A stretch of DNA of 64,000 nucleotides from Massalongia carnosa (lineage: Eukaryota), in the NCBI GenBank assembly GCA_965645245.1, contig OZ287068.1:2356001-2420000 (forward strand). Reading direction: 5' to 3'. The notes under the pieces were generated by a model. It saw nothing but the letters and a program-made list of their open reading frames with translations, was not told the DNA's origin and did not search any database. Below are positions 15,501 through 49,947 of this stretch, piece by piece. Both the position numbers and the translations under genes were made by a program. Position 1 is the stretch's first letter; each line of letters begins with the position of its first letter.

Positions 15501-18500
15501 GGTTCTGTAAAACGGTTCATTAATATCCAATTGCAAGTCCTCATTCGACTGCCCAGCTAAACTCGAATGTGTGATGCAAAATTTTACTTTGCTGTCAGTT
15601 AAAATAGCACGAAGCCTATTAACTGGCGTTTCCGGTGTCATTGCCAAATAACCTGCCCCGACTTTCACAACTCCCAAAATACTTATGTACAGATCCACGG
15701 ATTTTCCCAGGCATATACATACTAACTCGTTTGACGATATGTCTCGTTGCAAGAGATAATGCGCAAGCTGATTTGCTCTTACGTTGAGGCTGTGATAGGA
15801 AACTCTCTCTGCTTCAACAACAGGCCCATTTAGTTCTCGCACAAATTCGATTGCAATCCGGGTTGGCTCATTATGAGCGAGAAGCTCAACCGTTTGAGAT
15901 AACCCCGCAGGATTCTGATGGTGTTCTGGGCTGGGATTCTCGAAAGAAAGAAGCTCATCATCAAGATGGTGGCTAAGCTCGGTCAGGAGCGTGAAAGGCT
16001 GAGACGTAAGAGCTATGATTAAATGATCCATTTGGCGCAGGAAAATAGTCATCTGACTCTCGGGGAAAACTGACCGCTGATAATTGGCTTTGATTTGGAA
16101 GGCTCCCTCGTTCGGGTTCACTTCCAAGGTCAGATTACATTCAAGATAGTCTTTGGCATCGACCTGGGTGACAAGCTCAGGACTCCGCTCCTGCAATGTT
16201 TGTTGCCATATCAGCATTGCATCGAAGAGCGGGAGCCCGGGCGCAATCCCGCAAATCTTCTTTATCTCTTGTAATGGAAGCTCGTGGTGCTCTAGCAGTT
16301 CTCTGTTAAGTCGATGAACGGCTTGGATCAGATCTTGAGCAGTCCTAGAGTGAGCTACATCCAGCCTGAGGGGCAAAGTGGCAAAACAAGGACCGATGAT
16401 ATCCTCAATGCCGGGAACTGGAAGGGTCCGGCCTGATGAGACGGTGCCCATGATGACATCAGAGCTGCCAATATACATACCCAGCAGCCAAGCAAAAGCA
16501 GCCTGGAATAGGGCTTGAGGACTGACGCCAAGATTTCTTGAGGTCGATACTAGATCAGCCAGGCACGTGGTCAACGCAAAAGTAGATACACCTAAGCCGG
16601 GCTCTATATCTGTTTTCCCATGCAAGTTTGGTACTCTGCAGCTGGATGCATCTTGGAGATGGGTTTGCCAGTAGTCTTTGGACAGCGCCAACTTTGCCAG
16701 TGTTGAGGGGTGATTATAGAAACTCACGAGTTCTCTAAACTGGCACCGGGGGCGTAAAGGCTGCTTTCGGAGAATTAAGTCCAAGTCGCTGACTACATGC
16801 TCCCACGACCATCCATCGTAAAGAGCGTGATGGAGTTGGACCAAAATTCTGGATATTCCTCCGAAACTCCGTAAATGTACCCGAAGAGGCTTCAAGAACT
16901 CATCGGCTGTCTGGATGCGAAAGCTCCTTTTGGAAGATGACGATTGGCTTATCTGAAATTCAGATAAATTACTCCAAATCACTTGAACGAAGGGATGTAG
17001 CTGGTTCCCTGATTGAGCAAAGCCAGTACGCAATATCTCGTTCCGATCTGCTAAGTGGATAAAGGCTAATTGTACTTGGTCGAGTTTGACACTATCCAGG
17101 CATTCCAGCTCAACCCAATTGCAGTAAGCTTGGTGGTTTGCTTTGGTTTCGGCCAGCATTGCAATCTGTAGCGGCGTGCATGGAATAACATCATTAATGC
17201 TGCTGTATTCCGATTCTGAAAGTCTACTTTGTAATTCGTTGAGAACATCTTCCCGAACATTAACCCAGTCACCCGTTGGTAGCCTCGAATTGCTGGAGCG
17301 AGTTAAGCTTTCCAAAGGACGCGAAGCTTCTACAATTCGTTTGATAGTGTTCGCCTTCAGGATATCAACAACCCCAGTATTAATGTTTACTGACCGTAGT
17401 CTCGAGGCTAAGCGAATCGCAGACAGCGAATCAAGCCCCGCTGCAGCCAAATTCACTGAGAGATCGAGGCTGAGACCCAGAACATCCTGAATGGCTTTAC
17501 CAATCTTCGCTTCCATTTCAGTTTGTTCATTCCGCGGGATCGAGCTTGAAGTTTTTATTTCCTTTTCATATTCTGCCCTGAGCTTTAACGCGTCAACTTT
17601 ACCAGATGGTAATCGTGGCACGTCTTTCAGTAGAACCACATCACCTGGCACCACAAAACCTGGTAGCCAACGGCGACAAGTTTCCCAAACGTCAGCAGAA
17701 GTAACCTTAGGGTTCCCGGCAACGCAAAATAGCACCACAACCGCACCAACAACTACAGCAGTGGCACTCCTTATGCCTTCCATTTGATATGCGACCTGCT
17801 CTATTTCTCCAAGTTCAATTCTCTGTCCTCGCAATTTCACTTGGCCGGAATTCATTCTTCCCAAGCACTCGAAGACCCCGCCCGGAAGAAGTCGTGCCTT
17901 GTCGCCGGTTCTATAGACGCGTCCATATAGGCGAGTCTCCACAAAAGCAGAAGCTGTCTGCTCAGGACGATTGATATATCCGTCTGCTACCTGCAGTCCA
18001 GCAATCGCAAGTTCACCAATGTGTCCCAGTGGAAGTACCTCTATATCTGGAGATACTTCCCCCGAAGCCTGTGAAGCAACAATCAGACAAGAGACAGTAC
18101 CGAGAGGCACACCAATAATTCCGACTTTGAATTGTGACGAAAATGTAGTGGCTAGCGTGCAATGTATAGTCGCTTCCGTGGGGCCATACATGCCATGCAA
18201 GATGCCTTTCTTCGAGGGGGTATCGCCGAATTCATCAAGAACCGGACGAGTGAGCATCTCGCCAATAGTCAAGAGAACCTTCAGCTTCGGTACTCGAGTT
18301 CGGGTTTGAATCAAAGTTCCTACTACTGTTGGTGTTAGCTCCGCCGCATCGACACTGAGTAAAGTAATCATCGCAGGCAAGTCACGTAGGAGCTCCGTTC
18401 GGTCGCAGCCAACAAGTGTTTTACCTCGGTATAGAGGAAAGAACATCTCGAACACAAATACATCGAAAGTTGGAGCTGCGAACTGCAGAAAACGATGAAA

Positions 18501-19677
18501 TGTTGGGATGTGTTCATCATGTGCCAGGAGAGCCTGGGTGGCAGATAGATGGGATATTTCAACTCCTTTTGGTTGTCCTGTGGAGCCCGACGTGTACATA
18601 ACATACGCAAGGTTGGCTGGGCTGGGTATGCCGGACCAGATCTCACGCTCATCATAGTCTTCCGAGAATTGGTCTGCCAGGATGATCCGTGGGCAATTTT
18701 CCCAAAAAAATTTCCCTCTCAGGTCAAGGGTCGTGACAATTAATCTGGCAGCCACGTCACCGGCAATGAATCTGAGGCGCTCCGGTGGTGTATCAAGGTG
18801 TAAGGGACAAAAAGCGGCTCCTGCTTTCAGGATTGCAAGTATAACAATATACAGATCCATACATTGGGGGACCAACAACGGGATAATGCTTTGCTTCTGG
18901 TCGTCGACAGGCTTTGAAGTTTGGAGGATACGCCGAATTCGAGCCGCCACTATACTAGAGCGGTTATGAAGTTCAGTATAAGACACGGTCTGCGATTTTC
19001 CGTCTGGATGGCGAAACTCGATAGCACAAGCATCGCTGTCTTCATGTCTATTTATCAAGTGGTGCAGCAAACCAGGTCCGACTAGTCTGCGCGGGGCTTT
19101 GTTTATAATTGAGAGTTCTAAATCAGGCATGCCTTGCCACGAGAATACATGGCCAGGAGAGCCTGTTCTTTGTTGGACTACATAAACGAGTTGCTCGCTT
19201 ATATGTCGCAGTTGTTTGGTAGTCATGGGCAAGGAGCAAACCAAGGATGATTCTAAACCTTTCTCATCATAGCGTAAAACCACATCAAATCCCTTCAGGA
19301 TTGATTCCTGTGAACGTGAGTGTTGGGGCCACCAAACAAACCAGAAAACTTGCCCCTTCAGTAAAGATACCTGTGTATCTTTCTCCTTCCACTGCCGTCA
19401 TATGAATCACTTCTGGTGAAGCCTCACTCAAAACATCGACTGTAACGCTATCTCCATTGATCCTGAACGTTGGTGTGGCCTCTTCAGTATAACACCGAAG
19501 GACAATTGCCCAAGCTATTACAAGAACATCGAGAGAAGCTTGAACAAGAAAATCAATAGAGTTTGGAGAGACATCATCCGTCGCCACGATTGGCCTCAAG
19601 GGAGACAAATCGGGAAACCGGGTGTATCTTACAGGCTCCATCAGAAAATCTTCACTCGCATGGAGGAGATAAGTCAT
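3528..19677 (-). CDS. sidC: Ferrichrome-family (ferricrocin-type) siderophore NRPS, NPS2/SidC-like, about 13 introns
   Basis: Three A domains (YVMYTSGSTGQPKG, YAVFTSGTTGAAKG, YCLYTSGTSGTPK; YGPTE/YGPSE; YRTGD/YRSGD; QVKLRGQR). Six T domains (GLDS). Six C domains (HHALYDG, HHALYDG, LHAIFDA, FHALYDG, SHALYDG, HHALYDG). Order is A-T-C-A-T-C-T-C-A-T-C-T-C-T-C. The last exon ends ...DVGIWFPESLRGVQYMEELLEELRVGLEGI* at 3528. It lies divergent to sidA. Confidence 0.93.
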
Positions 19678-21266: not shown

Positions 21267-22245
21267 CCTAATTACAAGTTCAGATGAGAAAGGATCCCAC
21301 CGTTAACTCCATCACTTCATCAGCGTTCATGTTATTCCTCTTTATGACAAGGCTCTATCGTCCGGCTAAATACTTACAATATGTTGCTTTTGCTGTATTT
21401 TTATCTTAAGGCTTGAAAGATTAATGTTCGCCTCAAACTGATGGGGTCGCTGAGTCGAGCGGAAGTTCATTTATAAATTAGGAGAGGTTGACAATAAGCA
21501 TGTTGCTCACCCTTCGCCAGCATGACTTGCTTCTTTTCAATGAATACCTATGAAGGATATTTTCGGATAGTAAATGGTCTTCACCCCGTTTTTTTCTCGT
21601 CCAGATTCCATTTCCGGTTCCCCCTATAGTTCTGCAAATGCAAGTACAACTCATGCAGCCCCCACATATGCGATTTCGTCTGACGCGATCCTCCCTAGAT
21701 ATATATCCTTTGAACTGCTTGTTGAATTTTCTATTCTCCTGTTAGTGAGTTTCTTAACGATGAACGGTTTATGACTAGCGGCACGTGCTATTTGCTGCTC
21801 CTTCCCGAATGCTCCTTCAAATACTCTCTTCCATAGAAACCTACTGGAAGTATATCTTGCTCTAAGTGCCACTTCAAGAGAGAAGCTCTTTTATGGGAAG
21901 GCTCTCTTTTATGTTTAGCATTCATTACATTTACTTCCTACGTGCATTTACAAAGCGTGTATACATCAAATGCGGGGTTTAAGCCATAAATACCTCTCGG
22001 GAGAAAGCGCAACAATCAATATGCATTCCGAGGATTAGCAATACACGAGCATTTCCGACAGAGTTGTGGTATTCACTTGTGCATCACACCCAAACCGAGT
22101 CGCTACTGATTAATAACATGATATAAACCAACTCCTTCCTGTTCGATGAGCTGAGGATTGCTTGAAGTCCTACATGAACCACGGGTTGTTAGCGAAAATA
22201 AACCATCCAATTATATAGGAGTCCCGACGCATTATACCAGGCACA

Positions 22246-23898
22246 ATGACTCCCCCAGATCGCTCCGTACTCCGGCATATAGACCCCGGGGAGCTACACG
22301 ATCTCATATGCGTCGGCTTTGGACCCGCGTCTCTGGCTATCGCGGTCGCTCTACATGACGTGTTTTCTACCACATCAGGCGGGACTCCTCCCCCAAGAGT
22401 GGCCTTCTTTGAACGCCAACAACAATTTGCATGGCATGCTGGAATGCTAGTACCTGGAGCAACAATGCAGATTAGCTTCATTAAGGATCTTGCAACATTG
22501 CGCAACCCTAAAAGCGAGTTTACCTTTCTAAACTATCTACATTGCCGTAAGAGGCTTGTACATTTTTCAAACCTCGGAAATTTTTTTCCATTACGGCTAG
22601 AATACGAGGACTATCTACGGTGGTGCGCGGGGTGGTTTGAGGAAGTTGTTGAGTACGACCAAGAAGTCTTGGATGTTACACCTGGACGGCCTGTCACCAT
22701 TGATGGGAAAGTGAACTCATTTGTGGTGAAATCGAAAAATGGCACTACAGGTAAAATAACCACCTGCAGATCAAAGCATGTGGTCATTGCCATCGGTGGG
22801 AAGCCCAGAGTGCCGGAAGCGTTACCAACCCATCCAAGAATCTTCCATTCGTCCCGTTACACGCGAGTCATCCCAGCTCTGTTGAAAGAGCTGGGACATC
22901 CCAGTTCCGATTGCAACGGCAACGGTTTTGTGGCTCAGCTTCCCCCTTTGCATATTGCCGTTATTGGCAATGGTCAAAGCGCCGCTGAGATATTCAACGA
23001 TCTACACTCCAGATGTCCGCAAATCAAATGCTCGATGTTGATCAAAGGGGCTGCTTTAAGGCCTAGCGATGATTCGCCATTGTGGGTACCAAAAAGTTCT
23101 TGAGAAAATCGGCTAACTCTCGTCAGTGTCAATGAAATCTTCAATCCCGAATACACCGATTCTCTCTACGTGCAGCCCCCAGAAGTGCGGAAAGCAGCAA
23201 TAGTCGAAGACAAAGGCACCAACTACGGTGTTGTGCGCTTGGAGCTGCTAGAGCGTATCTACGGCACAATCTACGAGCAGCGAATCAAAAGTCCGGACGA
23301 GGGATCATGGCACCATCGCATCCTACCCTTTCGCCAAGTCACCCGCGTCGTGGACCTTCCAACCACTAAACGTGTCAGTCTCCGCATCAAGAACGTTAGC
23401 CGGGGATTTGGGCAGAGCAACGGATCTACGGAGGAAACCCTAGACGTGGATGTCATCTTCACCGCCACGGGGTACGTGCGCGACGCTCACGAGCAGATGC
23501 TCCGACCGGCCGAGTTTTTGCGGCCCTTTTCGGAAAAGCGCGCGGAATCGCAAGCGTGGCACGTCGAGCGAAACTATCGCGTGCAGTTCCGGCCAGGGTC
23601 CGTCAGCGATGACTCCGGCCTGTGGCTGCAAGGGTGCAACGAAGCCACGCATGGATTGAGCGACGTGCTGCTTTCGGTCCTGGCAACCCGGGCGGGCGAG
23701 GTGGTCGAGTCTATTTTCGGCCACTCCTTGAGGATAGGTGGTGGGGGTCGTGCGAATGGGCTTGAGGAGCACGGCACTGACTCGAGCCTAGGATCTCGGC
23801 CGAAGAAGTCTGGCGCCATCAATGGGAACGGGGTTTGTGGGGGAGGAGGTCGGTTGAGTGCTGCAAGCGAGCTTAGGGCCGAGGCACTGGGGGGATGA
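22246..23898 (+). CDS. sidA: L-ornithine N5-monooxygenase (siderophore biosynthesis)
   Basis: Motifs HDLICVGFGPASLAIA, WHAGML, MQISFIKDLATLRNP, GNGQSAAE, ATGY and WLQGCNEATHGLSD. An intron at 23082-23126 restores DDSPFVNEIFNP. Confidence 0.96.
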
Positions 23899-24476
23899 GA
23901 GCGCTTGAATGAAAAAGAAACTTAGCCAGCGATAGAGTGGAATTTGCTTTGATGAGACGTTCATGCACGAGGAAGATGGCTTCACTTACATTCCTTGCGA
24001 TCTGTCTCTGTAAGGAATCATTCTCTCTGCAATTATATAGCTACGCATAGTATTCATCAGCCTCCTCCACCTGTTTCGAAATAGTTATCCCCTCTCCTCC
24101 TAAAACTTCAAACCCCAAAATAGGATAAATCCGAGAAAACCCCTCATCATTGACCAACTCCCTCGGGGGGGTTGTCGTATCAAAGACGTATTTCCACTCC
24201 TACTTCTACTCCTACATATCCCTATCCCTAATACGATTCAATTTATATACTCAATATATAATATACACACACAGACATCTAATATCCTTGAATATCAAGC
24301 TCTTGAAGACGAAGAGATCTGAAGAGAAGAGAAACCGCGTCGAGGGTTTTTGACGCACGCATACACGTATGCGGGTCTGCGGTGATGATGGTTGAGAGAG
24401 AGGGGGGAAGGGAACGAAGGGATAGAGAAATTAAGAAGTTCAAGATGATATAAATGAGCAAATAAAGTGAACAAAT

Positions 24477-25114
24477 GATGATGATTGATTCTTGTACCGA
24501 TCTGACACCGGCCGAAGGCCGGCCCATGCGGGCTATCTACTTATTCTTACAGGGAAACCCTTTTAAAGGGACAAAAACCATGCAGACTGCGCCATTATCC
24601 CAAACGTGTTCCGTTTCTAGACTGCATTCTTCGCTCGATGTTCTGTGAAATCCTTGACAAAATGAGAGTTATCACTCGTATAACAGTTGCGATGCTAGTG
24701 AAAATTGGGTCAGCAAATTTGCTTTTATTATCCATGTGGTTAGTTTTTTCAACATTTTCGACGAGCTCATGATCGTTCGATAGTCGTTGGTGCCTATTTG
24801 TTTTAGCACTTCGTATCTGCCGTCGATTAGCCTGCAATGTAGAATGATGTGTTTGGCTGTCTGCTTCTGCCATCCGCACGAGCAGGCCGGGGTCATAACG
24901 CCCGGTACCCGACGATTGAACAGGAAGTTTGCCAAGCCTATTTTTTCGGTGCGGATTTGCGTGGTTAGCGCGCTTTCCGCTTTCATCAGGTTATTGTGAA
25001 TCTTCAGTCTCGTCCTACTGAGAGATCCCAACTGTGCCTCTGTCGGGCGGGGAATGCGGTTCTGGTACGTCTTCCATTTGGAGTCCCAGCGTTCCTTGAT
25101 GCGTTCTGTGGTGG
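24477..25114 (-). mobile_element. 5'-truncated Tad-like LINE (3' end of ORF2, 3' UTR, (ATC)n tail)
   Basis: ORF remnant QIRTEKIGLANFL..CSCGWQKQTAKHIILHC is a LINE C-terminal zinc knuckle. A 13-bp TSD AAAGTGAACAAAT lies at 24464-24476 and 25115-25127. The tail reads GATGATGATT on the + strand. Confidence 0.9.
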
Positions 25115-25281
25115 AAAGTGAACAAATAAGCATTACTCTCAAAATCTAACTTTGAATTCCCTCTTCTCCCCCTCAAACAAGGGCGAGCTAACGAGCGAGA
25201 GATATAGTTGTCGCGCGGGATTCAAAAAGGGGGAAAAGGCGGCGAAGGTCCGAGGAAGAGATAGGTGTATGTTTGAAATAA

Positions 25282-25457
25282 TGAGATGGTTCTATGTCAC
25301 GTGAGGCCCCTGAGTCAAAGTAAATTAAGAATCACCCTCTGAAAATTCTTTCCTCATCCACTTCTTCTCACTCGGCCTCATCCATCTCACTGACTCGTCG
25401 TCGACCCCACGTTGTCTCGGTGCCCCTACCTCGCTGTCAGTGCTTGCTGCTTTTCCC
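25282..25457 (+). repeat. Split direct repeat A1 (176 bp), identical to A2 at 29566-29741
   Basis: Both run TGAGATGGTTCTATGTCACGTGAGG...GCTGCTTTTCCC; no mismatches seen by eye. Confidence 0.95.
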
Positions 25458-25526
25458 ATCTCACTGACTCGTCGTCGACCTCACGTTGTCCTCGGTGCCC
25501 CTACCTCGCTGTCGGTGCTTTTTCCC
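25382..25526 (+). repeat. Imperfect ~74-bp tandem duplication in the 5' leader of the YR retrotransposon
   Basis: CCATCTCACTGACTCGTCGTCGACC...CCTACCTCGCTGTC starts at both 25382 and 25456. Confidence 0.85.
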
Positions 25527-25527
25527 A

Positions 25528-26541
25528 ATGACGAACACCCGTTCCCAAAGCACCCCGATGGACGACATAGTCCCCGACTCCTAGGAGATTGTCGGATTGA
25601 CGCAGGCCCAGTCCAATCAAATCTTCGCCCTACAAAAGAAGAAAGCCGAGGCAGAAGCGAAGGCGGCCGAGGCTGAGGCCAGAATTGCCGAGTCCAAGGC
25701 ATTGGTCGCCGAGAAGGAGGTGGAAAAAATGCAGCTAGAAATCGACTGCATGCGCCGAGAATCTGACGCCCGAATAGCGGCCGTCATTCCTGCTGGCAAG
25801 CCGAGTCGTGTCGTCGGCGATGACGACGAGGACCTAGGTGAGATCCCTCTCGAAGTAAGAAGTATAGCACCCCGTTTCGCGGGCCTACCACAGGACGAGA
25901 TCATCAAGATCTTTTCAAATAAATTCAAAGCCATCAACCTCTCCCGCCTCCGACACATGCACGGCATGCAATACGAGTCCTACAAGGATCAGGACCGCAT
26001 CGGCATCGAAGACGGCGCCTTGAGGTTGAGAAAGGCATCCGGGACCTACAAAGATTTCGGAAAGACAGTTCATGACGTCTGGACCGAGAGCTTCATCAAC
26101 TACACCTCGATCATGGTCAGTCTTTTCGGGAAATCGAGTCAACAGCTTCACGCCACCATGTCGGCATTCCACGGAAAAATCCTCACGCTGGCCAAGGTGT
26201 ACGAGTGGCAGGAAGCAGTCCTCCCCCTCGCCATCGAAACCCACACTCACATCATCGCGTCTCAGCCATCCGACGCATCCCAATGGAAAATGCCCGACGA
26301 ATTCCAAGCTCGATTCTGCACCCCCCTCACAGTCCTACGCCGTCGCCGCTCACGATCCCCGCCGTCCCGGCGACCGACCCCGAGAGGAGACAGGGCCGAT
26401 AGGGCCGAGAAGGCAGCGGGGGAAATCTGCGACAAGTACAACAGCGGCACCTGCACCTGGCCGTCGTGCTACCGACAGCACAAATGTAAATCGTGCGGCG
26501 CGGCTGGGCATGGCCAGAAGACATGCCCAACGAAGAAATAG
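25528..26541 (+). pseudogene. gag-like ORF1 of the YR retrotransposon with an early nonsense codon
   Basis: ATG at 25528 reads MTNTRSQSTPMDDIVPDS*EIVGLTQAQ, with TAG at 25582. A coiled coil follows, then a C-terminal CCCH+CCHC finger CDKYNSGTCTWPSCYRQHKCKSCGAAGHGQKTC. Confidence 0.8.
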
Positions 26542-26586
26542 GGGGTTGGTGCAGGAGGCAGTAGAATAGCTTCAATAGCTGAATTC

Positions 26587-28241
26587 ATGACGTCCCATCC
26601 CTGCTTACCTGCACCAATCAGACCAAATACAATCCCTTCGTTTCAACTCGTAGACGCATCTCGTCAGCGTTTGAAAGACAGCCCATCTCCCCTCGTACCG
26701 TCCGCATGGGCAACTCTACTTCAAGAGTATCCGGGCCCCCTCCGAGTCCATCTGCCCATGATCCTTCGTTTCGGAGTACAAATCGGATACGAAGGCCCCA
26801 CAGACATCCTTCGGATCGAAAAAAATCTGACATCAGCGAATGAGGACCCGGAAACGATCGAGAATAAGCTCCAAGAGGACCTCAGGAAGGGCCGAGTCAG
26901 ACGAATAGCCGCCCCGAGTCAGCCATTTGTGGCCTCCCCCCTCGGCTTGGTCCCGAAACATGACGGAGGATGGCGACGCATTCATCATCTGTCTCATCCC
27001 AATCAAACATCAGTCAACGACAACATTCCAGAAGAGGCATCCAAATTACAATACGCCAGACTCGACGACATTATTCAATTGATTCTGTCAGCGGGCAAAG
27101 GTGCTGTCATAGTGAAAAGAGACGTCAAAGACGCCTTTCGAAACGTTCCCGTCGCACCTCATCATCAATGGCTTCTGGGTTTCGGATGGAATGACGAATT
27201 CTACACCGAGACATGCCTTTCCTTCGGACTGTCGACGGCCCCGTTCATCTTCAATCTTTTTGCGGAAGGCTTTCATTGGATTTTGGAATCCTTTCTACAA
27301 TGGAGATTACATCACTATCTAGACGACTTCGTTGCAATTTTCCCATCCGAGACATCGTCAGAACGATTGCACCAAGAAACAAAAGCCTACAACATTCTCA
27401 CCGACATTCTTGGCATCCCGAGAAAGGACTCAAAAGACGCCGAGGGAACGACAGCGACAGTCTTCGGACTCGAGGTCGACACCATCAACAGTCTTATTCG
27501 TCTGCCAGCGGACAAGCTGGAAAAAGCGAGAATCATCACTACAAAGGCACTAAACGAGACGACAATCAGCCTCGGCGACATGCAGTCAATAGCGGGCTTC
27601 CTAAGCTTCTGCGCACAGGCAGTCAAATTGGGCCGAGTCTTCTTACGATTATTCTGGAATTTTATAGCCTCATTTCCCTCGGGCAGTCATCGTCGGGTCA
27701 AAAGAAGAATTCCCACATGGGTCAGACAGGATCTCATCTGGTGGAACAAACTTCTAGTGGACTTCAACGGTATTGTCTTCTTCGAGACGTCAACACGAGA
27801 CACGATCAAGACAACGAGCTCGTGAATCAAAAAAACGCATGTAGGGCCCGAGTCCTAGTCCTCAATCAGGAAGGATCACCGAGCATAAACGTCCGAGAAG
27901 TCGAAGCTATCCTTCTAATCCTTCAGAAATGGGCGCCGACATGGCGACATCGACAGATCCTTGTCTTTACCGACAGCAACACAGCATACACAGGATTCAC
28001 GAATCTAACCCTCAAGGGACCGGCCAACGCGCCTCTACGAGAAATACTGTCCATAGCTGCAAAGTGGGACATCGTACTACGTTGTCAATGGATCAGTGGC
28101 ACTTCCAATGGACTAGCAGATGCCCTGTCACGTTTTGATGATGAAAGATTGGCTAACTTTTGCCCTCATTGGCAGAACCCATACAATTCGATGAACCTCC
28201 CTCCACCTACCTATCCTCCACACCAGGGTCAGCCCTGGTAA
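26587..28241 (+). pseudogene. Reverse transcriptase / RNase H ORF2 of the YR retrotransposon, frameshifted near 27810
   Basis: RT motifs SPLGLVPKHDGGWRRIHHLS, KRDVKDAFR, LSFGLSTAPFIF and YLDDF. RNase H motifs SINVREVEAI, VFTDSNT and NGLADALSRF are in another frame, and the first RNase H Asp motif is missing. Confidence 0.85.
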
Positions 28242-29323
28242 AACGTCTCGTCTGGCACGGACACTCGGCGGACACGAGAAAAGGGTACGGGACGGCGATC
28301 GACTCATACGAGGCATTCTGCGCGACGACGGGACGCACGTCGTGGCCTGCAACAACCGAGTCCCTCGAGGAATGGCTAGCCGGTCGACTATACGGGGGCG
28401 GCACACCCAAGCAGGGAAAGATAAAACCAGAGACGGCAGCGAGCTACCTCGCCGGCCTCAGATCATACCATGTAGACCGAGGATACGGCCTCACCCCATT
28501 CGAGGGGCCGAGACTTCAATTGATGCTGAAAGGGGGAAAAAGGATCTTTTCTCAGACAAAAAGAAGACGCCTACCCATTTCAAAAGAATTACTGACAAAA
28601 ATCACCAGTATTCCCGCTCATTCGGCCGAAGACCTCAACATCGACGCGACATTCAAAGTTGCATGGGCAGGGTTCCTCAGACTCGGGGAAATCACCTACA
28701 CTGTCGCTGATCGTAAGAAGACATCTTTTCAGAGATTGAAACCTACACGAGGTGACATCTCATTCGCCGAGAACGATCAATACGCGACATTACGTCTCAA
28801 AAGAAGCAAAACAGACACAAATCACTCAGGAGTTCAGATAGTGCTGGCAGCGACCAATGAGAGCACTTGCCCCGTGACAGCACTACGGCGTCTTTTCAGA
28901 AATGATCCTCAGCCATCTACATCCCCGCTTTTTCGTCTCGGCACCGCATTCACCAGAGCCTCCGTCATAGCATCCCTGAAAAAGAGACTGATAGCCGTCG
29001 GCATCAACGACTCGGCATACTCGGGACACAGCTTCAGAAAAGGAGCAGCACAACACGCCGCCGACCACGGGATGCTGGATGAGAGTATTCAGAGACTCGG
29101 AAGATGGTCATCAAACGCGTTTCAGCTATACTTTCAGACGTCCCAGGCCTCACTATTCAATTTGAACCTCAGTTTTCAAAAAGGCATCCCTCTAGCAGTC
29201 CCACGTGCTGTCGTCGCCGAGACGAATCCTACAAACTCCTACCCCTACTCAATTGGGCATTCCATTGGGCGTACAGGTCAACCAGGGCATCGATCCGGAG
29301 CGCCGCCGGGCACCTCCATCTAG
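28160..29323 (+). CDS. Tyrosine recombinase (ORF3) of the YR retrotransposon
   Basis: Catalytic motifs AWAGFLRLGE (R), LKRSKTD (K), GHSFRKGAA (HxxR) and LGRWSSNAFQLY (W...Y). It overlaps the end of ORF2 in a different frame, as in DIRS/Ngaro. Start is uncertain. Confidence 0.9.
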   Translation: MPSLAEPIQFDEPPSTYLSSTPGSALVKRLVWHGHSADTRKGYGTAIDSYEAFCATTGRTSWPATTESLEEWLAGRLYGGGTPKQGKIKPETAASYLAGLRSYHVDRGYGLTPFEGPRLQLMLKGGKRIFSQTKRRRLPISKELLTKITSIPAHSAEDLNIDATFKVAWAGFLRLGEITYTVADRKKTSFQRLKPTRGDISFAENDQYATLRLKRSKTDTNHSGVQIVLAATNESTCPVTALRRLFRNDPQPSTSPLFRLGTAFTRASVIASLKKRLIAVGINDSAYSGHSFRKGAAQHAADHGMLDESIQRLGRWSSNAFQLYFQTSQASLFNLNLSFQKGIPLAVPRAVVAETNPTNSYPYSIGHSIGRTGQPGHRSGAPPGTSI

Positions 29324-29565
29324 ATCATCGCCGTCGGGCACTGCCGTCGGGCATCATCTATCGGATCGTTGAGCGTCAGCAGACGCCTCGGGCCTAGAAG
29401 ATGAGGTTCTCACCTCAGCACCGACCCCGAGTCACGTGCCTAGGCCTGCCCGGGCTGACCTGTGTCGTTCCCATGCCCAATCAAATTCAAGCATTCAAAT
29501 CAATTCATCCAATTAAAAGCCCCCCCAGCGCAAGCGAAGGTAACGGCACCGATAAGGGTCATAGA
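29266..29565 (+). repeat. Split direct repeat B1 (300 bp), identical to B2 at 29796-30095
   Basis: Both run TGGGCGTACAGGTCAACC...GATAAGGGTCATAGA; no mismatches seen. Confidence 0.95.
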
Positions 29566-30117
29566 TGAGATGGTTCTATGTCACGTGAGGCCCCTGAGTC
29601 AAAGTAAATTAAGAATCACCCTCTGAAAATTCTTTCCTCATCCACTTCTTCTCACTCGGCCTCATCCATCTCACTGACTCGTCGTCGACCCCACGTTGTC
29701 TCGGTGCCCCTACCTCGCTGTCAGTGCTTGCTGCTTTTCCCCACCCTCGGCCACCCGAGATTCATAGCTAGTTAGAAGCCACCTTAAGTGAGCGATGGGC
29801 GTACAGGTCAACCAGGGCATCGATCCGGAGCGCCGCCGGGCACCTCCATCTAGATCATCGCCGTCGGGCACTGCCGTCGGGCATCATCTATCGGATCGTT
29901 GAGCGTCAGCAGACGCCTCGGGCCTAGAAGATGAGGTTCTCACCTCAGCACCGACCCCGAGTCACGTGCCTAGGCCTGCCCGGGCTGACCTGTGTCGTTC
30001 CCATGCCCAATCAAATTCAAGCATTCAAATCAATTCATCCAATTAAAAGCCCCCCCAGCGCAAGCGAAGGTAACGGCACCGATAAGGGTCATAGAGATAT
30101 CAATATAGGTAGTTAAA

Positions 30118-32766
30118 GAGTACGGATACGTGGACACCCCTTTGGTTACCTGGACACCCCCTGAGGTTACCTGGACACCCCCCAGTGATACAGGGACACC
30201 CCCTTCCTAGAATAGGTAAGAATCAAGGGTTCAGCCCCCTCACTTACCCACTTCGGGGTAAGCTCCCGGGCGCATATCGGGGAAATTTTTTCCTTCACCT
30301 TTTGAAAGTGGTCGGGAATTTCTGAAACGAAGTCGATTGGCACTGGCTTTGCAAATCAGACTCTGATTCTAGAAACTAAGCCTCATTTGGTCTAATTAAT
30401 GATGATAACCTCCTCATCTCCGCTTGCTGTCGCTGTCCCCCCCCCCCTGTCGCCGTCCCCGCCTCCGAGTCATTTGTAGCCAGCCTGCCAATCCCCTTGT
30501 TATAACCCCTCCTCTAGCCCTACCTCCCCGTCCCCGTCCCCATCCCGATCCCCGTCCCCGTCTGCCTCGTCCACGACCAGGTGCCGGGTCCGCTCGATGA
30601 ACGGCTGATTGATCTGCATCCGGGTCCACCCGCTCGAAAAGGGAAGGATCACGATTAGTAGATGCCTCGAATGCTTGCTGTCTTCTATTCAAATTCTCCG
30701 CACCTGCAGGTCTGCCCCTTGGTCTAGCAACTTCGGGTGCCTGAACCCGAAGATAAGGATTATCAATAGCCACACGGGCTGTCCTATCAAACCTCCAATG
30801 AGGATGAATATCTTCCAATAGCAACTTTCCCCCCCCATCCCCATACAATCGTTCCTGAATCTTATGACTGCACGGAAGACCCATGGTTAAACTGAACGTT
30901 CCAGTACAGGCCGGAATAGCTGTTGGTTGACCAACCAAACGTTCGTATTGAGGCATTATCTTTCTCAAAGCATAGGAAGTGACGTATGGACTGATTTCCT
31001 GAAAGATAGGTTTGCGAATATCCATAGGTAGTCGCACCTTCGCTTCATCAAGACGAATCAGATGATTGTGAAGTTCATTGATCAATAGAAGATTGATTCC
31101 GTCCACCACCGTCTTAAGATCTCTAGATGATGACCCTAGCTGTCGCTTAAGTACTGCATGCCCACCTTCACCTCGAGAGGTAGTGGTGGTTTCGAAATGA
31201 GTAATCATACTGGTATAGCACTTGACAAAACGATGTCGGAAGGGTATGTAGATGTCGTTTAGATATTCCACACATTGATCCTGACCCTGATACTGAATCC
31301 TGAATCGCTCCCATGACTCCAAAAACTCTGGTTCTGACGAGGCATAAACGACCGTTTTCCAGTCAGCGAAGAAGGAGTCCCACGCCTCTTTGGTATCGAA
31401 GCTCTTCTTGCAATTGGTCAGGACGTTATTATTGATGTGCCATAAGCAAAGCAGATGATTGGTTGCGGGGAAAACATCCTCAATTCCAGCTATCAGACTC
31501 TTTTCCATGTCCGTGACTATGACGATCGGGTTAGGAAGCATCATCCCATCATACATACCTCGCAATTGCTGCAACATCCAGGTATAATCAGACGTGGCTT
31601 CCTTGGCCATGAAGCAAAATGCCACATAGAAGTTGGTATGTAGGGCGGTTTGACCACTGATGATCAATAAGGGCATCTTATATCTGTTGGTTTTGTAAGT
31701 GGCGTCCATCACCAACACCTCGTAATTCGTCTTCAATAGTCGTTGAGAACAGCCCTTAATAAAGAATAAATGAGTTATTCTATCTAGATCATCCTTTTGC
31801 ATCTGATACGTCCAATCTCCTTGATCCAGCTCTCGGATTAATGCCTGAACCGGAGTCAATGGGCCGAGTGTCTCGCGACGAAGCTGTGCTTTGACGTTGT
31901 AGATATCCCGAGGTTTGAATAAGGGATTGATGATGTAGGGATTTTCTGGATCGTCAAAATTGATTCCCGTCGTCGGATCAGCAACACGAAGACTAGATAA
32001 AATCTTGAAAGGGGCTGTTTGCACGATCAGAGCTCGGGAAATCTCACTTTTAACCTCTTTCGTCATCGCCAATTTCCTCAACGCTGGATGAGCACCAGCG
32101 AGGGTAGAAGCATGATTATGAGTCGATTTGACCACCTCCAAAAACCAGATACCACTGTCGTTTTCTCGTGTGGCCACACAAGAGAAAGGGCATTCAATTC
32201 GTCGGCTACCCGTATGTCGCCGATCCTGACCTCTTGGTCCGTCGGTTTTTCTTCCTCGATCACATATCAGCCATGCCTTTCTTGTTACCTTAAGTTTCGA
32301 CTTCTTGGTTCGACCCAAAACGACTGCGTATCCTTGAAAACTTTGTCCATCCTCGGGGGGTGCAAGTCCGCCAGGGGGTAGAGGGCCAGGTGGTCGGGGT
32401 GGAGTAGCTGGTTCATCTTCGAGGGGTGCAAGTCCGTCAGGAGGTGGGGCAGGAGGTGGGGCAGGAGGTGGGGGGTCAGGAGGTGGGGCAGGAGGTGGGG
32501 GGTCAGGAGGTGGTGCAGACATGATAAAGTGTCAAAATGTTGGTGATGATGCTGTTTACGAAGTGCCAAAATGTTGGTGTTTACGGTTGAAAAAAAAATT
32601 CCCGAGGTGCACCCTCGGGAGCTTACCCCGAAGTGGGTAAGTGAGGGGGCTGAACCCTTGATTCTTACCTATTCTAGGAAGGGGGTGTCCGTGTATCACT
32701 TGGGGGTGTCCAGGTAACCTCAGGGGGTGTCCAGGTAGCCAAAGGGGTGTCCACGTATCCGTACTC
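30118..32766 (-). mobile_element. Mutator-like (MULE) DNA transposon
   Basis: 151-bp TIRs (30118-30268 and 32616-32766, ~3 mismatches) begin GAGTACGGATACGTGGACACCCC and each contains four GGACACCCC subrepeats. An 8-bp TSD TAGTTAAA lies at 30110-30117 and 32767-32774. Confidence 0.93.
30414..32522 (-). CDS. MULE transposase
   Basis: FAR1-like CDRG..CPF..HNH; MULE DDE motifs MDATYKTNRY, VTDMEKSL, CLWHI and RGEGGHAVLK; SWIM finger CTGTFSLTMGLPCSH; AT-hook RPRGRP; Pro-repeat N-terminus. Confidence 0.9.
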   Translation of the reverse strand: MSAPPPDPPPPAPPPDPPPPAPPPAPPPDGLAPLEDEPATPPRPPGPLPPGGLAPPEDGQSFQGYAVVLGRTKKSKLKVTRKAWLICDRGRKTDGPRGQDRRHTGSRRIECPFSCVATRENDSGIWFLEVVKSTHNHASTLAGAHPALRKLAMTKEVKSEISRALIVQTAPFKILSSLRVADPTTGINFDDPENPYIINPLFKPRDIYNVKAQLRRETLGPLTPVQALIRELDQGDWTYQMQKDDLDRITHLFFIKGCSQRLLKTNYEVLVMDATYKTNRYKMPLLIISGQTALHTNFYVAFCFMAKEATSDYTWMLQQLRGMYDGMMLPNPIVIVTDMEKSLIAGIEDVFPATNHLLCLWHINNNVLTNCKKSFDTKEAWDSFFADWKTVVYASSEPEFLESWERFRIQYQGQDQCVEYLNDIYIPFRHRFVKCYTSMITHFETTTTSRGEGGHAVLKRQLGSSSRDLKTVVDGINLLLINELHNHLIRLDEAKVRLPMDIRKPIFQEISPYVTSYALRKIMPQYERLVGQPTAIPACTGTFSLTMGLPCSHKIQERLYGDGGGKLLLEDIHPHWRFDRTARVAIDNPYLRVQAPEVARPRGRPAGAENLNRRQQAFEASTNRDPSLFERVDPDADQSAVHRADPAPGRGRGRRGRGSGWGRGRGGRARGGVITRGLAGWLQMTRRRGRRQGGGDSDSKRR

Positions 32767-33925
32767 TAGTTAAAAAAGGGGGGAGGGGGGAGGAGAGAGA
32801 AAACTGATGAGGAAGGAAGAGAGAGAGGAGAAAAGAGAAAATAGATAGATAGGTATGTATTTAAAGAAAAGAAAATTAAGGTAGAGAGGATCTTTTAAAT
32901 CTTTTAATCTATTGTTCATATTTTTCTGCTTCGCCTCTTTCCCCTAGGTCTCAGCAGTTTTCCGTATTGCTTTGCTTTGCTTAATTGAATCAGTTCCCTA
33001 ATCCCCTTTGGCTCCATCCACAATACCGTTGAAGTTACAGGTGTTGAGATAAATTGAAGAATGAAGAGTAATGACTGACTGGAGACGTTGAAGGAAAGGA
33101 GAGAGAGATGAGACTTAAGCCTGAGACTTGGAACGGAGAGAGGGGGGGGGCTTTGAGGGGATTCCTAACATAAGTGAAAGAAAGGAAAGCGAGGGCGAAG
33201 GAAAGAAAGAAATGGCGTGATGAATGCGAACGCAGGAGAGAGAAAGAAAGAGCGCGAAACAGTCTGATCGAAGTAGATAGTCTGCATGATTGGTGTTAAG
33301 TTTTTTAATGATAGAAGAAATAATTGAGCGATTTGCAAAATACTGGAAATCGCGTCCGCGCCTGCTACTGCTAGGCTGCATTATTTTTTCTTCGGTCAGT
33401 TGCGAGCTGGCTGGCGAAGGCAAGTGAACATGAGTTATTATGGAGAAGAGAAGAGGGAAAGATTTTTGGGGGGGGGGGGGGGGGGTTGAGGAAGGAACTT
33501 TCATTTTAGATATGCCCACTCAAAGTATCAAGATTGGATTTTCTACTCCTGTAGCTGAAATGATAATAGGTATTTAATCATAGAATAGAATCCGAAAGAA
33601 CCGCTTGCCGCGCCGGTAAAACTGGGTAGAATACCAAGTAATTCTTTGTAGAAAGCCGAACCGGCACCTTTTCTTAGCCAAACCGAATTGCTTCTAAGTG
33701 ATTAACACTGGTTAAGATTACATATCGTCGGTTTCATCTTGTGGCTCATTTTTAGTCCTATTCGCTCGCTTTGAACAAGGCGGTTCACAAGAACCGATTT
33801 GTGGTGGCTTTGGCAGCGCGGGTATTGATCACAGTTACTTTCCTGTGACTGTGCAGATGGCCTTATTCTCATCCAACTTATCCCATGCCGAGGGGTCGTG
33901 CGAGCTTGTGCATCTAGGTGTCATC

Positions 33926-37469: not shown

Positions 37470-39371
37470 TTCGTGCCCCACACTTTCGCTCGGTCGACTC
37501 GCTTAGTGCTAGCCAGCCATACAGCCAGGACCAGCCATACAGCCAAAATCTTCAAATTTCTACCCACCACCTTTGAAAAATTCATTATCCACCACCATCA
37601 TGCCTGAATCTTATACTATAATTGAAAATCGTATTGCAAAGGCCATTGACGCCTTAAACTCACGCAAAAACGCCAAACTCAGTGCAATTGCGCGGGAATT
37701 TAATGTACCTAGAGGAAGACTTCGTTCTCGGGTCAAAGGGGTGTCATCTAAAACGAAAGTACGAGGACTGCATAATATACGTCTAAAACCCGATCAGGAG
37801 TTGGCCCTACGTCTATATCTTTTGAAACTGGATTCTTTGGACATTCCGGCTCGTCTGCATATAGTGGAAGTGGCTGCATACTCCATTCTTCGTCAAACGG
37901 CTTCCGATTCGACGCCTCCTCCTCCTCTCGGCTCGCATTGGATCAAAAGATGGCTAAAACGTCAGTCAGATCTTTACAAGGTTAAACGTAAGCCTCTAGC
38001 TGCTGAGCGCAAAAATGCGCATGATTTGGAGTTATTGATGGGGCATTTTGAAAAATATCAAGTAGTGAACAAGTATGGAATAAATCCGAAGGATCAGTGG
38101 AATTTTGATGAAACTGGGTTTCGTATTGGTATGGCACGAAGTGATTGGATAATCACAGCAGATTCTTCTCGACAATCATACAGTTCCGATCCATCAAATC
38201 GAGAATCGCTGACAGCGGTGGAGTGTATCAACGGGGCTGGTCAGGACATTCCCCCTTTTTTAATTGTGTCTGGCATCAACATCCTCGCTCCCTGGGTCAA
38301 AAACGATCTGAGCAATGATGTAGTCATTTCTACAGCTGAATCGGGCTGTACAAATGACTGGTTGAGTTTGCAATGGATCAAGCATTTCGACAAACACACT
38401 GAAAAAATAAGAGAGGGGGCTTGGAGACTTTTGATAATGGACGGTTATGGATCTCATCATACTCGAGAATTTCTAGAATATTGTGAAACGAAAAACATCA
38501 TTCCATTCGGATTACCATCTCATACCACAAATCTCTTACAACCATTGGATGTGTGTGTTTTTCAACCTCTGAAACACTGGCATTCCGAGGCCGTCAATAA
38601 AGCAATTCAGAATGGAGATCAAACCTTTTCCAAAGTCGAATTTCTGAATGCATTTAGCAAGTTTCGATCGCTGGCTTTTAAACCTTCCACCATACAGTCT
38701 GCTTGGAGAAAAACAGGCTTGATTCCGTTCAATCCAGGCATTGTTCTCGACAAAGTTCGAGAACTTCTTCCTCCCCCTCCTCGTGAATCAACTCCGTCTC
38801 ATACAGCCCCCTATCTGTACAAGAAACCCCTCGAACCGTGCGACAGTTGGCCACAGTAGCCACAGAAATCATGACGCATTCAGCTTGCTCGGATGACCTC
38901 GTACAAATTGTTAGCAAATTTGTAAAGGGAGCTGTTGCCGAGGTTCGAAAAGGCGATCTTCTGGAACAACGCTGGGAACAACAAATCAAGGCCCAAACTG
39001 CTCGGAAAGCTCGTAAACGAGAGGCCAATAAGATTCTTCATCACGGAGGCGTACTTACTGTTGGTGAGGCCCGTTCAATGGTTCGTGGTAGGGAGGAGCG
39101 GGAGGAGATAAGGGAGAAAGAGCGAAACGTCGCATGGGAAAAGCGTTATTGTACGGCTCTTACCAAAGTGGTTAGGCAGTCAAAAGCGCATAGAAAGATG
39201 CTTATGACTAGAAGCATTAATAGTCACAAAAGATGGATGATGATCATGAAGGAATTGCTGAAAAAAACCCCGATGTATGTAGAATAGTTGATTTTTGGCT
39301 GTATGGCTGGTCCTGGCTGTATGGCTGGCTAGCACTAAGCGAGTCGACCGAGCGAAAGTGTGGGGCACGAA
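37470..39371 (+). mobile_element. Fot1/pogo-type (Tc1/mariner superfamily) DNA transposon
   Basis: 79-bp perfect TIRs (37470-37548 and 39293-39371) with an internal CAGCCATACAGCCA duplication. TA TSD at 37468-37469 and 39372-39373. Confidence 0.93.
37600..39287 (+). pseudogene. Fot1/pogo transposase with a frameshift near 38805
   Basis: HTH-psq start AIAREFNVPRGRL and DDD motifs NFDETG, MDGYGSH and LQPLD. The C-terminal part (ETPRTVRQL..GGVLTVGEAR) is in another frame. Confidence 0.85.
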
Positions 39372-39758
39372 TACTCTCTGTATTCAGAATACCGTACGGA
39401 GTACTAAATATCTATTACCTCTTAAGTATTACACAAAAGATACATAGATATGCACATAACAGGTATGCGGTTACTCTGTGCAGAGTACAAAGTATTATCC
39501 ACTAAATAATACGGAATAACTACCGTAACGTGACTAGCCAGCGGATTTAAGACGGGGATATATCATCACAGCGTTAATCAATAGGCATTTACAGAGAAGG
39601 TGGTTGGACGCAATCTTGCTAAACAATCCCGATCAGGGCTAACTGTACGTAATGGATGACGATGACCTTCTCCCTCTCACCCCTTATATGCAAGCTCCTA
39701 GAGACTTGCCGGGGAACTTTGAAAGGAAGATAGAAAATAGAAACCCTAAACCCTCGCT

Positions 39759-49778: not shown

Positions 49779-49947
49779 GCAGCTATTATAATGTTTTGTT
49801 GCAAAGAACGCCTTTTCTAATGAGTTTACGAAAATTCATCCGCTGACGTAGCTCAATCCTTTTTTAAACTCTTCCTCATAATCTCTCTTCAAGCAGGAAA
49901 TTCCAGTTATCCCCAACATTTTGATCAGATTCAAAAAGGTTTGGAAA

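Follow-up and report, generated by a model that had tools for sequence, protein, structure and literature searches.

The window analyzed here, a stretch of 64,000 nucleotides of contig OZ287068.1 (assembly GCA_965645245.1, Massalongia carnosa), contains at positions 25281–30095 an element that was read, with a probability of roughly 0.85, as one copy of a Ngaro-type tyrosine recombinase (YR) retrotransposon, whose family is young, has many copies and resides in an ascomycete related to the lichen-forming Lecanoromycetes. The layout of the element is A1-[gag, reverse transcriptase (RT)/RNase H, YR]-B1A2-54 nt-B2, where A and B are split direct repeats. The existence of such a family with intact siblings shows that at least one ascomycete lineage has active members of the DIRS order and, having many copies and several hosts, the family is tractable for studying YR-mediated integration.

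Termini, Repeats and Internal Joint of the Element

Part of the stretch was carried by 14 public runs from 12 studies, one of them labelled "lichen metagenome", and the Logan contigs of four of these runs (X1, X4, X5, and X6) were compared with the window. The span 24000–31500 of the window was searched with a repeat finder, and two pairs of direct repeats, A (177 nt) and B (300 nt), were obtained. Both pairs were 100% identical, in agreement with an earlier note, made from the letters alone, which had called the copies identical by eye. The two repeats have one base in common, the A at position 29565 (the counterpart of 25281 and 30095), which can be assigned to either of them; hence, a length of 176 nt for repeat A and a start of the element at 25282 are an equally valid cut. 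The repeats and the sequences associated with them are the following.

25281–25457, plus strand: repeat A1, left terminus, 100% identical to 29565–29741; the match of X5 record 19 starts at 25281.
25382–25520, plus strand: tandem duplication of 74–75 nt across the 3′ edge of A1, in the 5′ untranslated region (families D3 and D4, 95–97% identical).
29266–29565, plus strand: repeat B1, overlapping the C-terminus of the YR, 100% identical to 29796–30095.
29565–29741, plus strand: repeat A2, directly behind B1, the two together reproducing the joined termini internally; X6 record 27 spans A2.
29742–29795, plus strand: unique spacer of 54 nt between A2 and B2, from sequence inspection.
29796–30095, plus strand: repeat B2, right terminus; an X6 loose end behind 30095 enters a different flank.

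At the internal joint the sequence is ...GGGTCATAGA|TGAGATGG..., where the right end of the element directly meets its left end, just as had been proposed for the B1|A2 junction CATAGA|TGAGATGG. On the left side the flank ...GTTTGAAATA is followed by a single A and then by TGAGATGG, and on the right side the element ends in ...GGGTCATAGA and is followed by the flank GATATCAAT. No target-site duplication (TSD) was found beyond the single ambiguous A shared by the flanks, a result that refers to one complete copy, the second insertion (run X6) showing one side only. The absence of a TSD and the empty site reconstructed in the earlier note were thus correct, as the flanks share only that A. The search for inverted pairs of at least 30 nt in 24000–31500 gave none, and no further copies or fragments of the element were present elsewhere in the window.

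The termini were also observed in the independent contigs. Record 27 of X6 (290 nt, 1 mismatch) runs from B1 through the B1|A2 joint, A2 and the spacer into the start of B2. Record 28 of X6 carries B2 and then other sequence behind 30095, which makes it a separate insertion sharing this right terminus, and in record 19 of X5 the similarity begins at 25281. The ends of the element and its internal joint are not an assembly artefact, since both termini and the B1|A2 joint recur in independent contigs; this settled a doubt about the repeats that the earlier note itself had raised. The joint expected of an empty site, 25280|30096, was absent among the 15 read joints listed of 44. A joint 25114→30120 was considered as an empty site and rejected, as it joins the ends of two neighbouring transposons and its side measures 27 nt, the rule for read joints being a side of at least 31 nt.

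The identity of the element across runs labelled as other organisms was 99.8–99.9% (9 differences in 4313 for X5 and 4 in 3867 for X6). This near-identity across differently labelled runs may reflect either close kinship of the hosts or transfer between hosts. Additionally, in the X6 contig whose match starts at window position 26057, the 20 unmatched letters that precede this position resemble the SMART template-switch cDNA oligo. If X6 were a cDNA library, the element would be transcribed in that organism; one contig runs past 30095 into the flank.

Several minor observations were made on the repeats and the leader. The copy number of the tandem duplication in the leader differs between sibling contigs, and a 75-nt array is also present in the untranslated leader (885–1288) of the locus L009 (see section “Relatives of the Element in Other Contigs”), only distantly related to the window element. 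Each of the repeats A and B has one match to the octamer GTCACGTG, in which an E-box is included (25296, 29431, 29580, and 29961). Four of the five matches to the octamer in the window lie inside the element, the expectation being 0.93 per window, and five matches were reached in 0 of 100 shuffles; the octamer may be a protein-binding site common to both repeats. Repeat B also contains an ATTAAA-like motif some 50 nt ahead of its end, a candidate signal for the poly(A) site. Furthermore, the B|A joint (29560–29580, and also the virtual end-to-end joint) is spanned by a 6-nt inverted repeat, CATAGA/TCTATG, whose arms are 9 nt apart. The boundary of the element is the inner edge of the left CATAGA arm, an arrangement that recalls a recombinase core site and is short enough to be due to chance.

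Coding Regions and Defects of the Window Copy

The coding frames were defined from stop to stop, which gave gag at 25585–26541, RT at 26542–27825, a frame with the RNase H at 27195–28241 and the YR at 28157–29323. Comparison with the siblings led to the following description.

25528–26541, plus strand: gag open reading frame (ORF), with a coiled-coil-like N-terminus and C-terminal CCCH and CCHC knuckles; start taken from the sibling P0479, end at TAG 26539–26541.
26542–27810, plus strand: RT part of pol (RVT_1, Pfam, E 1.2e-12), with 406 of 409 residues identical to P0001 up to ...DTIK.
27807–27810, plus strand: site of a private 49-nt deletion with CAAG microhomology, from P0001 and the contigs of X4, X5, and X6.
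27811–28241, plus strand: rest of the RNase H and C-terminus of pol, out of frame with the RT; weak RVT_3/RNase_H matches, aligned with residues ~425–567 of P0001.
28157–29323, plus strand: YR ORF, in the −1 frame relative to pol with an overlap of 85 nt, first ATG at 28523; it appears intact.

No Pfam family above threshold was obtained for gag, and 596 relatives of it were found at E ≤ 0.001 in the representative library. Its C-terminus carries CX7CX4CX3H followed by CX2CX4HX4C, so that the CCCH/CCHC gag of the earlier note was confirmed. The sibling P0479 starts with MTNTRSQST, which sets the gag start at the ATG 25528. Between this ATG and the stop-to-stop frame lies a nonsense codon, TAG 25582–25584, that is private to the window copy: the codon is CAG in all the covering contigs of X1, X4, and X5, and Q in P0479.

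The closest relative of the RT is P0001, a 567-aa RT-RNase H protein, 99% identical, that represents 59 sequences on Mb-size contigs. One of these contigs measures 3,628,741 bases, the length also recorded for the contig with the SidA-like protein of the window (see below), so that a sibling probably lies on the window's own contig. After DTIK, P0001 reads VHTDACLTGLGGYFQQDNELV..., and the window copy passes directly to the DNELV part in another frame. The 49-nt deletion takes out VHTDACLTGLGGYFQQ, including the first RNase H aspartate (TDAC motif), and shifts the frame. Record 22 of X5 and record 24 of X6 have 45 extra letters at this point together with a 4-nt overlap at 27807–27810, and the loose ends of X4 at 27807 and 27810 encode the same missing peptide. 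Further private substitutions of the window copy were found at 27222 and 27426. In the sibling P0001 the RNase H was matched by RT_RNaseH (4e-4) and RVT_3 (0.03). Protease, DDE integrase (rve) and Dam-type methyltransferase gave no match at E ≤ 1, either in P0001 or in the frames of the window. The nearest solved structure to the RT profile was the Ty3 RT (E 1.7e-9), and the Atlas neighbours of the RT were clusters of Mollusca, Basidiomycota and Cnidaria, which are a lead only.

The YR of the window is 99% identical to its closest relative, P0258 (387 aa, from a cluster of 54). Its own match to Phage_integrase of Pfam was sub-threshold (0.0024); among 34 YR relatives, 13 matched Phage_integrase and 11 the SAM-like N-domain at E ≤ 0.01. 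The YR alignments conserved an Arg (FLRLGE), a Lys (KRSKTD), HSFRxG, GRW and a C-terminal Tyr, which correspond to the R, K, HxxR, W, and Y of the catalytic set. A search of solved structures with the single YR sequence gave nothing relevant; with the YR profile, 17 of 18 matches were Cre/Tre chains, at E-values of only 0.05–0.35. An AlphaFold model of the YR (pLDDT 85) was compared by Foldseek, and all of the top matches were Cre over both domains (E 3e-10, TM 0.50–0.63), followed by Xer, lambda Int, and Flp. In the model, the recombinase thus folds like Cre, and it carries the catalytic residues R, K, HxxR, W, and Y.

These results indicated that the window copy is defective, with a gag nonsense codon and an RNase H deletion, and that its siblings encode intact proteins. 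The earlier note had called the element full-length, which does not hold in the sense of intact, both lesions being private to this copy. An intact and autonomous full-length element would agree with the presence of all three coding regions and all four repeats, with the 100% identity of the repeats and with the uninterrupted YR, 99% identical to its siblings. It is nevertheless very improbable, because TAG 25582–25584 stands against CAG in all the covering contigs and the Q of P0479, and because the 49 nt missing at 27810 are present in P0001 and in the contigs of three runs, so that here TDAC is lost and the frame broken. This copy could at most move using proteins supplied by its siblings.

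The repeats showed 0 differences in 477 bases, which is compatible with a young insertion, as far as this loose clock goes. About one repeat difference would be expected if all four private changes had arisen after insertion, so that the identical repeats fit defects either older or younger than the insertion.

Relatives of the Element in Other Contigs

A scan of metagenomes with P0001 as a single query gave at least two loci, L001 and L002, both distant (25–27%). A scan of genome contigs with P0001 as a single query gave one irrelevant locus, L003, and a scan with the YR alignment gave L005 again and nothing else. Six contigs with relatives, L004–L009, had an RT identity of 36–50% and were filed in bacterial metagenome-assembled genomes (MAGs), namely Solirubrobacteraceae, Kribbellaceae and Bacteroidetes bins. 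These contigs are most likely fungal contamination of the bacterial bins, and their mis-binning matters for the curation of metagenomes.

The relative L004 is an assembly cycle of 4553 nt with a terminal overlap of 117 nt, as would be expected because an A...B|A arrangement closes the assembly graph. L005 and L006, which belong to one MAG, were considered as the two halves of one element and this was rejected, the identity being 79% over only 71 nt; they are not of the same family.

Assignment to the Ngaro Group

In published descriptions, Ngaro elements are defined by the arrangement A1-[ORFs]-B1A2B2, a YR and an RT/RNase H, without a methyltransferase (PMC8547959; PMC13465315; PMC3783388). 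DIRS1-like elements have inverted terminal repeats, an internal complementary region (ICR) as well as a methyltransferase, and PAT-like elements combine split repeats with a methyltransferase (PMC7192593; PMC3266345).

The window element has split direct repeats, a YR with no DDE integrase, an RT and an RNase H with no protease, no methyltransferase, and it integrated without a TSD. By this architecture and domain set, with the related groups set apart by their descriptions, it is very probably a Ngaro-type element of the DIRS order. The same assignment had been made in the earlier note, and the repeats, the RVT_1 match, the Cre-like YR model and the lack of protease, DDE integrase and methyltransferase bore it out. 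Some points weigh against it. A2 and B2 are 54 nt apart and do not abut. Furthermore, Ngaro ORFs are usually non-overlapping, as a tendency only (PMC3266345), and in this family pol and YR overlap, by 85 nt in the window and by 19 nt in L004.

An assignment within the DIRS order to the PAT-like or DIRS1-like elements instead is improbable. Split direct repeats do occur in PAT-like elements too, and an overlap of pol and YR is commoner in DIRS1-like elements (PMC3266345). However, a methyltransferase was not found in pol and there is no room for one, as the YR frame opens (28157) before the RNase H has come to its end (28241). Neither inverted terminal repeats nor an internal complementary region were present (0 inverted pairs of at least 30 nt), and the order gag-RT/RH-YR within A1-[ORFs]-B1A2B2 fits the Ngaro definition (PMC8547959; PMC13465315).

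A Gypsy-like long terminal repeat (LTR) element, a chimera of nested insertions or a mis-assembly could also mimic split repeats. The Ty3 RT is the structure nearest to the RT profile, and the element sits in a transposon nest, with a fragment resembling a long interspersed nuclear element (LINE) on the left and a Mutator-like element (MULE) on the right. Nevertheless, there are no LTRs, no protease, no DDE integrase and no TSD of 4–6 bp, and a Gypsy-related RT/RH is what is expected for the DIRS order (PMC3266345). Moreover, identical joints and ends appear in independent assemblies, and the L004 cycle has the same gene order, all of which makes an origin of this kind exceedingly improbable.

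When compared with described Ngaro elements (Muszewska et al., 2013, PMC3783388; the Cafeteria Ngaros of Hackl et al., 2021, PMC8547959), the window element shares with them the arrangement A1-[ORFs]-B1A2B2, the gene order gag, RT/RNase H, YR, a YR with HxxR and the catalytic Tyr, and the lack of methyltransferase, protease, DDE integrase and TSD. It differs from them in its Pezizomycotina (Lecanoromycetes-like) host, a group in which the 2013 survey had one remnant (PMC3783388), in the 85-nt overlap of pol and YR and the 54-nt spacer between A2 and B2, and in having gag and pol in one frame with a single stop and an ATG-less YR with splice-like signals. PAT-like elements (PAT, Toc, and Kangaroo) are alike in their split direct repeats, YR and RT/RNase H, but carry a methyltransferase domain (PMC7192593) that was absent from the window element. 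DIRS-1 of Dictyostelium and the DIRS1-like elements are probably alike in that internal joined termini restore the ends before a YR-mediated integration without duplication (PMC7192593). They differ in their inverted terminal repeats, ICR, methyltransferase and a 3-nt identity between junction and target (PMC3266345), whereas the window element has direct repeats, no methyltransferase and 1 nt in common with its target.

Replication Model

In DIRS-1, retrotransposition requires the internal sequence of joined termini (ICR), which has been proposed as the template from which the ends are restored (PMC7192593), and the identity between junction and target in DIRS1-like elements is 3 nt (PMC3266345). 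In the window, the junction CATAG-A-TGAGA and the target AAATA-A-GATAT have exactly one base in common. Following the published model of the DIRS order, a transcript shorter than the element would be reverse-transcribed, and the internal B1|A2 joint would template the restoration of the ends to give a closed junction. Integration would follow by YR-mediated recombination between this junction and the target, which have one base in common, and no duplication would result.

Host and Published Record

The host was judged from a SidA-like ornithine monooxygenase encoded in the window, where fragments of a siderophore-type nonribosomal peptide synthetase (NRPS) were also found. The nearest Atlas clusters of the SidA-like protein were eukaryotic, with Ascomycota as the commonest phylum. 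Its best named matches were Pseudocyphellaria aurata (72%), Xylona heveae (60%) and Pycnora, Sarcosagium, and Sarea (57–59%), followed by other Pezizomycotina. The host is an ascomycete and probably a relative of the Lecanoromycetes, as far as these protein similarities indicate, and this fits the run labelled “lichen metagenome”. The ascomycete host named in the earlier note was upheld by these relatives, from Lecanoromycetes and other Pezizomycotina, and by the Atlas phylum.

The earlier note had further taken the record of such elements in Pezizomycotina to be much sparser than in basal fungi and basidiomycetes, and published work does have Ngaro nearly absent from Ascomycota (PMC3783388; PMC13465315). 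In published surveys Ngaro is found mainly in Basidiomycota and early-diverging fungi, and the only trace in Ascomycota given in the 2013 survey was a single remnant in Neosartorya fischeri (PMC3783388). A 2011 survey gave no DIRS1-like elements in 75 ascomycetes (PMC3266345), and in 2026 DIRS and Ngaro were still placed mostly in Mucoromycota and Basidiomycota (PMC13465315). Ngaro in the group of lichen fungi is not entirely new, because a 2023 preprint plots an automatic “LTR/Ngaro” track for the genome of a lichen fungus. The literature searched on Ngaro in ascomycetes, lichens and Pezizomycotina contained no description of the window family. Within the same scope there was no description of readthrough or of a spliced YR mRNA in the expression of Ngaro elements; the expression variant proposed below is possibly new for Ngaro.

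Putative Readthrough Between Gag and Pol

Three candidate signals for expression were noted in the window copy, all on the plus strand.

25838–25843, plus strand: G|GTGAGA, a candidate 5′ splice donor in phase 1, where gag has its conserved Gly-Glu; the same G|GTGAG in L004 and L006.
26539–26625, plus strand: candidate readthrough signal, the in-frame gag stop UAG-G with a long hairpin (from frame and fold).
28152–28175, plus strand: candidate branch point GCTAAC with 15 nt and a CAG acceptor, exon start at 28176; the motif is present in 4 loci.

In five of the six loci compared (the window, L004, L006, L007, and L008), pol follows gag in the same frame and only one stop codon separates them. 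The stop contexts of the relatives are TAG-GGG in L004, TAG-CAA-TTC in L006, TGA-ATC in L007 and TGA-CTA in L008. For the 87 nt that begin with the stop of the window copy, folding gave a long hairpin, set 5 nt behind the stop, with a minimum free energy of −34.5 kcal/mol (z −3.63) that was equalled in 1 of 200 shuffles. Gag-Pol would be made by readthrough of the single in-frame UAG, aided by the downstream hairpin, and production by stop-codon readthrough is fairly likely on this pattern of frames.

Three observations weigh against readthrough. L009, a scaffold with Ns, is the one locus of the six without the in-frame arrangement of gag and pol, and simple folds of the relatives gave no hairpin of comparable strength. 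Furthermore, an ATG stands 16–21 codons behind the stop in every pol frame checked except that of L008, and this same ATG speaks for a possible alternative, in which pol would be produced by separate initiation at the downstream ATG and not by readthrough.

Putative Spliced Expression of the Recombinase

The YR frame has no ATG for its first 122 codons, and two conserved motifs suggested how it might be reached. The donor-like G|GTGAG lies at the aligned Gly-Glu of gag, in phase 1, in the three of three closer relatives that have the region (window 25838, L004 694, and L006 922). At the start of the YR frame, GCTAAC-N(10-15)-YAG was found in the four of four loci window, L004, L005, and L009. 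GCTAAC is the fungal branch-point consensus, and the YR frame opens at the TAA within it. L009 keeps the GCTAAC...TAG in spite of a different pol phase and the lack of the CPHW peptide, and this speaks for a signal at the nucleotide level. The acceptors of the window, L004, and L005 need exactly one base, and the donor and acceptor phases agree in two of two loci (the window and L004); hence, gag would run into the YR frame in both.

According to this proposal, the YR would be made from a spliced mRNA in which the first 103 codons of gag (donor 25838) are joined to the YR frame at 28176. The predicted intron would span 25838–28175 (2338 nt), the product would be a fusion of 103 Gag residues to the YR, and the layout would resemble the production of retroviral env. 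Translation of the YR from such a gagN-YR mRNA has, in our estimate, slightly less than an even chance of being correct.

The evidence that weighs against splicing is of several kinds. The letters of the donor and the acceptor also encode conserved peptides, GE[IV]P.EV in gag and CPHWQ in pol, and the conservation of these peptides could explain that of the motifs. One gag relative has DE in place of GE, and the donor is absent at that column in the distant loci L007 and L008. A joint 27840→28176 (GT..AG) in X1 has a side of 29 nt, under the 31-nt rule, and would create a stop, TAA. The lone fused gagN-YR ORF, P0279 (1 of the 120 YR relatives listed), is joined at other positions.

The candidate P0279 was considered separately. 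It is a protein of 375 aa from an 11-kb Logan contig, in which a gag-like coiled-coil N-terminus is fused to the YR from about residue 40. Its interpretation as a processed copy of the spliced RNA was rejected, since in BLASTP the gag part passes the predicted donor and the YR part starts ~40 residues behind the acceptor. It represents either a non-autonomous derivative with an internal deletion or the outcome of splicing at other sites.

Alternatively, the YR might be produced without spliced RNA, through a frameshift in the 85-nt overlap, a non-AUG (TTG/CTG) start, or reinitiation on a full-length or internally promoted RNA, the splice motifs being by-products of the conserved peptides CPHWQ and GE[IV]P.EV. 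This is a serious contender, though it too falls somewhat below even odds. In its favour, the YR overlaps pol in the −1 frame, YR ORFs that overlap or are frameshifted have been described for YR retroelements (PMC3783388), and gene callers put a TTG-type start at one column, the start column being identical in 26 of 34 database YR proteins. Against it, the overlap in L004 is merely 19 nt, the motif of L009 is kept in a different pol phase without CPHW, and the phases agree in both loci that have donor and acceptor. The −1 frameshift from pol to YR was itself rejected as a candidate, since no canonical slippery heptamer (X_XXY_YYZ) was found in the pol/YR overlap in any of the four loci.

Gammaretroviruses express Gag-Pol by readthrough of the gag stop codon and env from a spliced subgenomic RNA. 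The window element would be like retroviruses in having gag and pol separated by one in-frame UAG-G, just behind which the RNA is structured, and in a downstream gene reached by a long intron with its donor early in gag. It differs in that the downstream gene is a recombinase and not an envelope gene, and the machinery of integration is unrelated. If the signals of readthrough and splicing are real, they would explain the expression of a recombinase frame devoid of ATG, and a retroelement not bounded by LTRs would have converged on the retroviral way of dosing proteins. The whole picture, that of a Ngaro lineage thriving in lichen-type ascomycetes as dozens of near-identical copies, with a retrovirus-like programme (hairpin-aided UAG readthrough, and a 2.3-kb intron that would join 103 Gag residues to the ATG-less YR) and with spread from host to host left open, can be put forward only tentatively and is rather unlikely to hold in every part.

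Neighbourhood of the Element

The element is flanked on both sides by other transposons. Its right end lies 21 nt from the left terminal inverted repeat (TIR) of the MULE, which occupies 30117–32767 and is apparently complete. The TIRs of the MULE measure 175 nt (30117–30291 and 32593–32767) and are 93% complementary, and its MULE/FAR1 transposase ORF of 702 aa is uninterrupted (30414–32522, minus strand). The left neighbour, at 24493–25133, is a LINE-like repeat fragment with an ORF on the minus strand (24672–25133) that has a Cys/His-rich tail. Its similarity ends at 25114 in X1, X4, and X5, which then continue into other sequence, and for this reason it is a multi-copy repeat. The identity of this fragment in X5 was ~95–96%, a much greater divergence than that of the Ngaro element.

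The siderophore-type NRPS (A, T, and C domains) extends over 3709–19397 on the minus strand as eight stop-to-stop frames, some of which abut in one frame (7341–8624/8625–9554). The SidA-like gene, at 22219–23898 on the plus strand, is cut by one in-frame stop (23101–23103). The interruptions in both genes could be short in-frame introns or the result of pseudogenisation beside a transposon nest.

Other remains of mobile elements were found among 37513–38859 and 49132–49782, namely the frame of a Tc5/pogo DDE_1 transposase and, on the minus strand, a fragment with RVT_1. Finally, the kilobase 40001–41000, with 65% GC, overlaps the frame of an FAD-binding monooxygenase (39750–41006).

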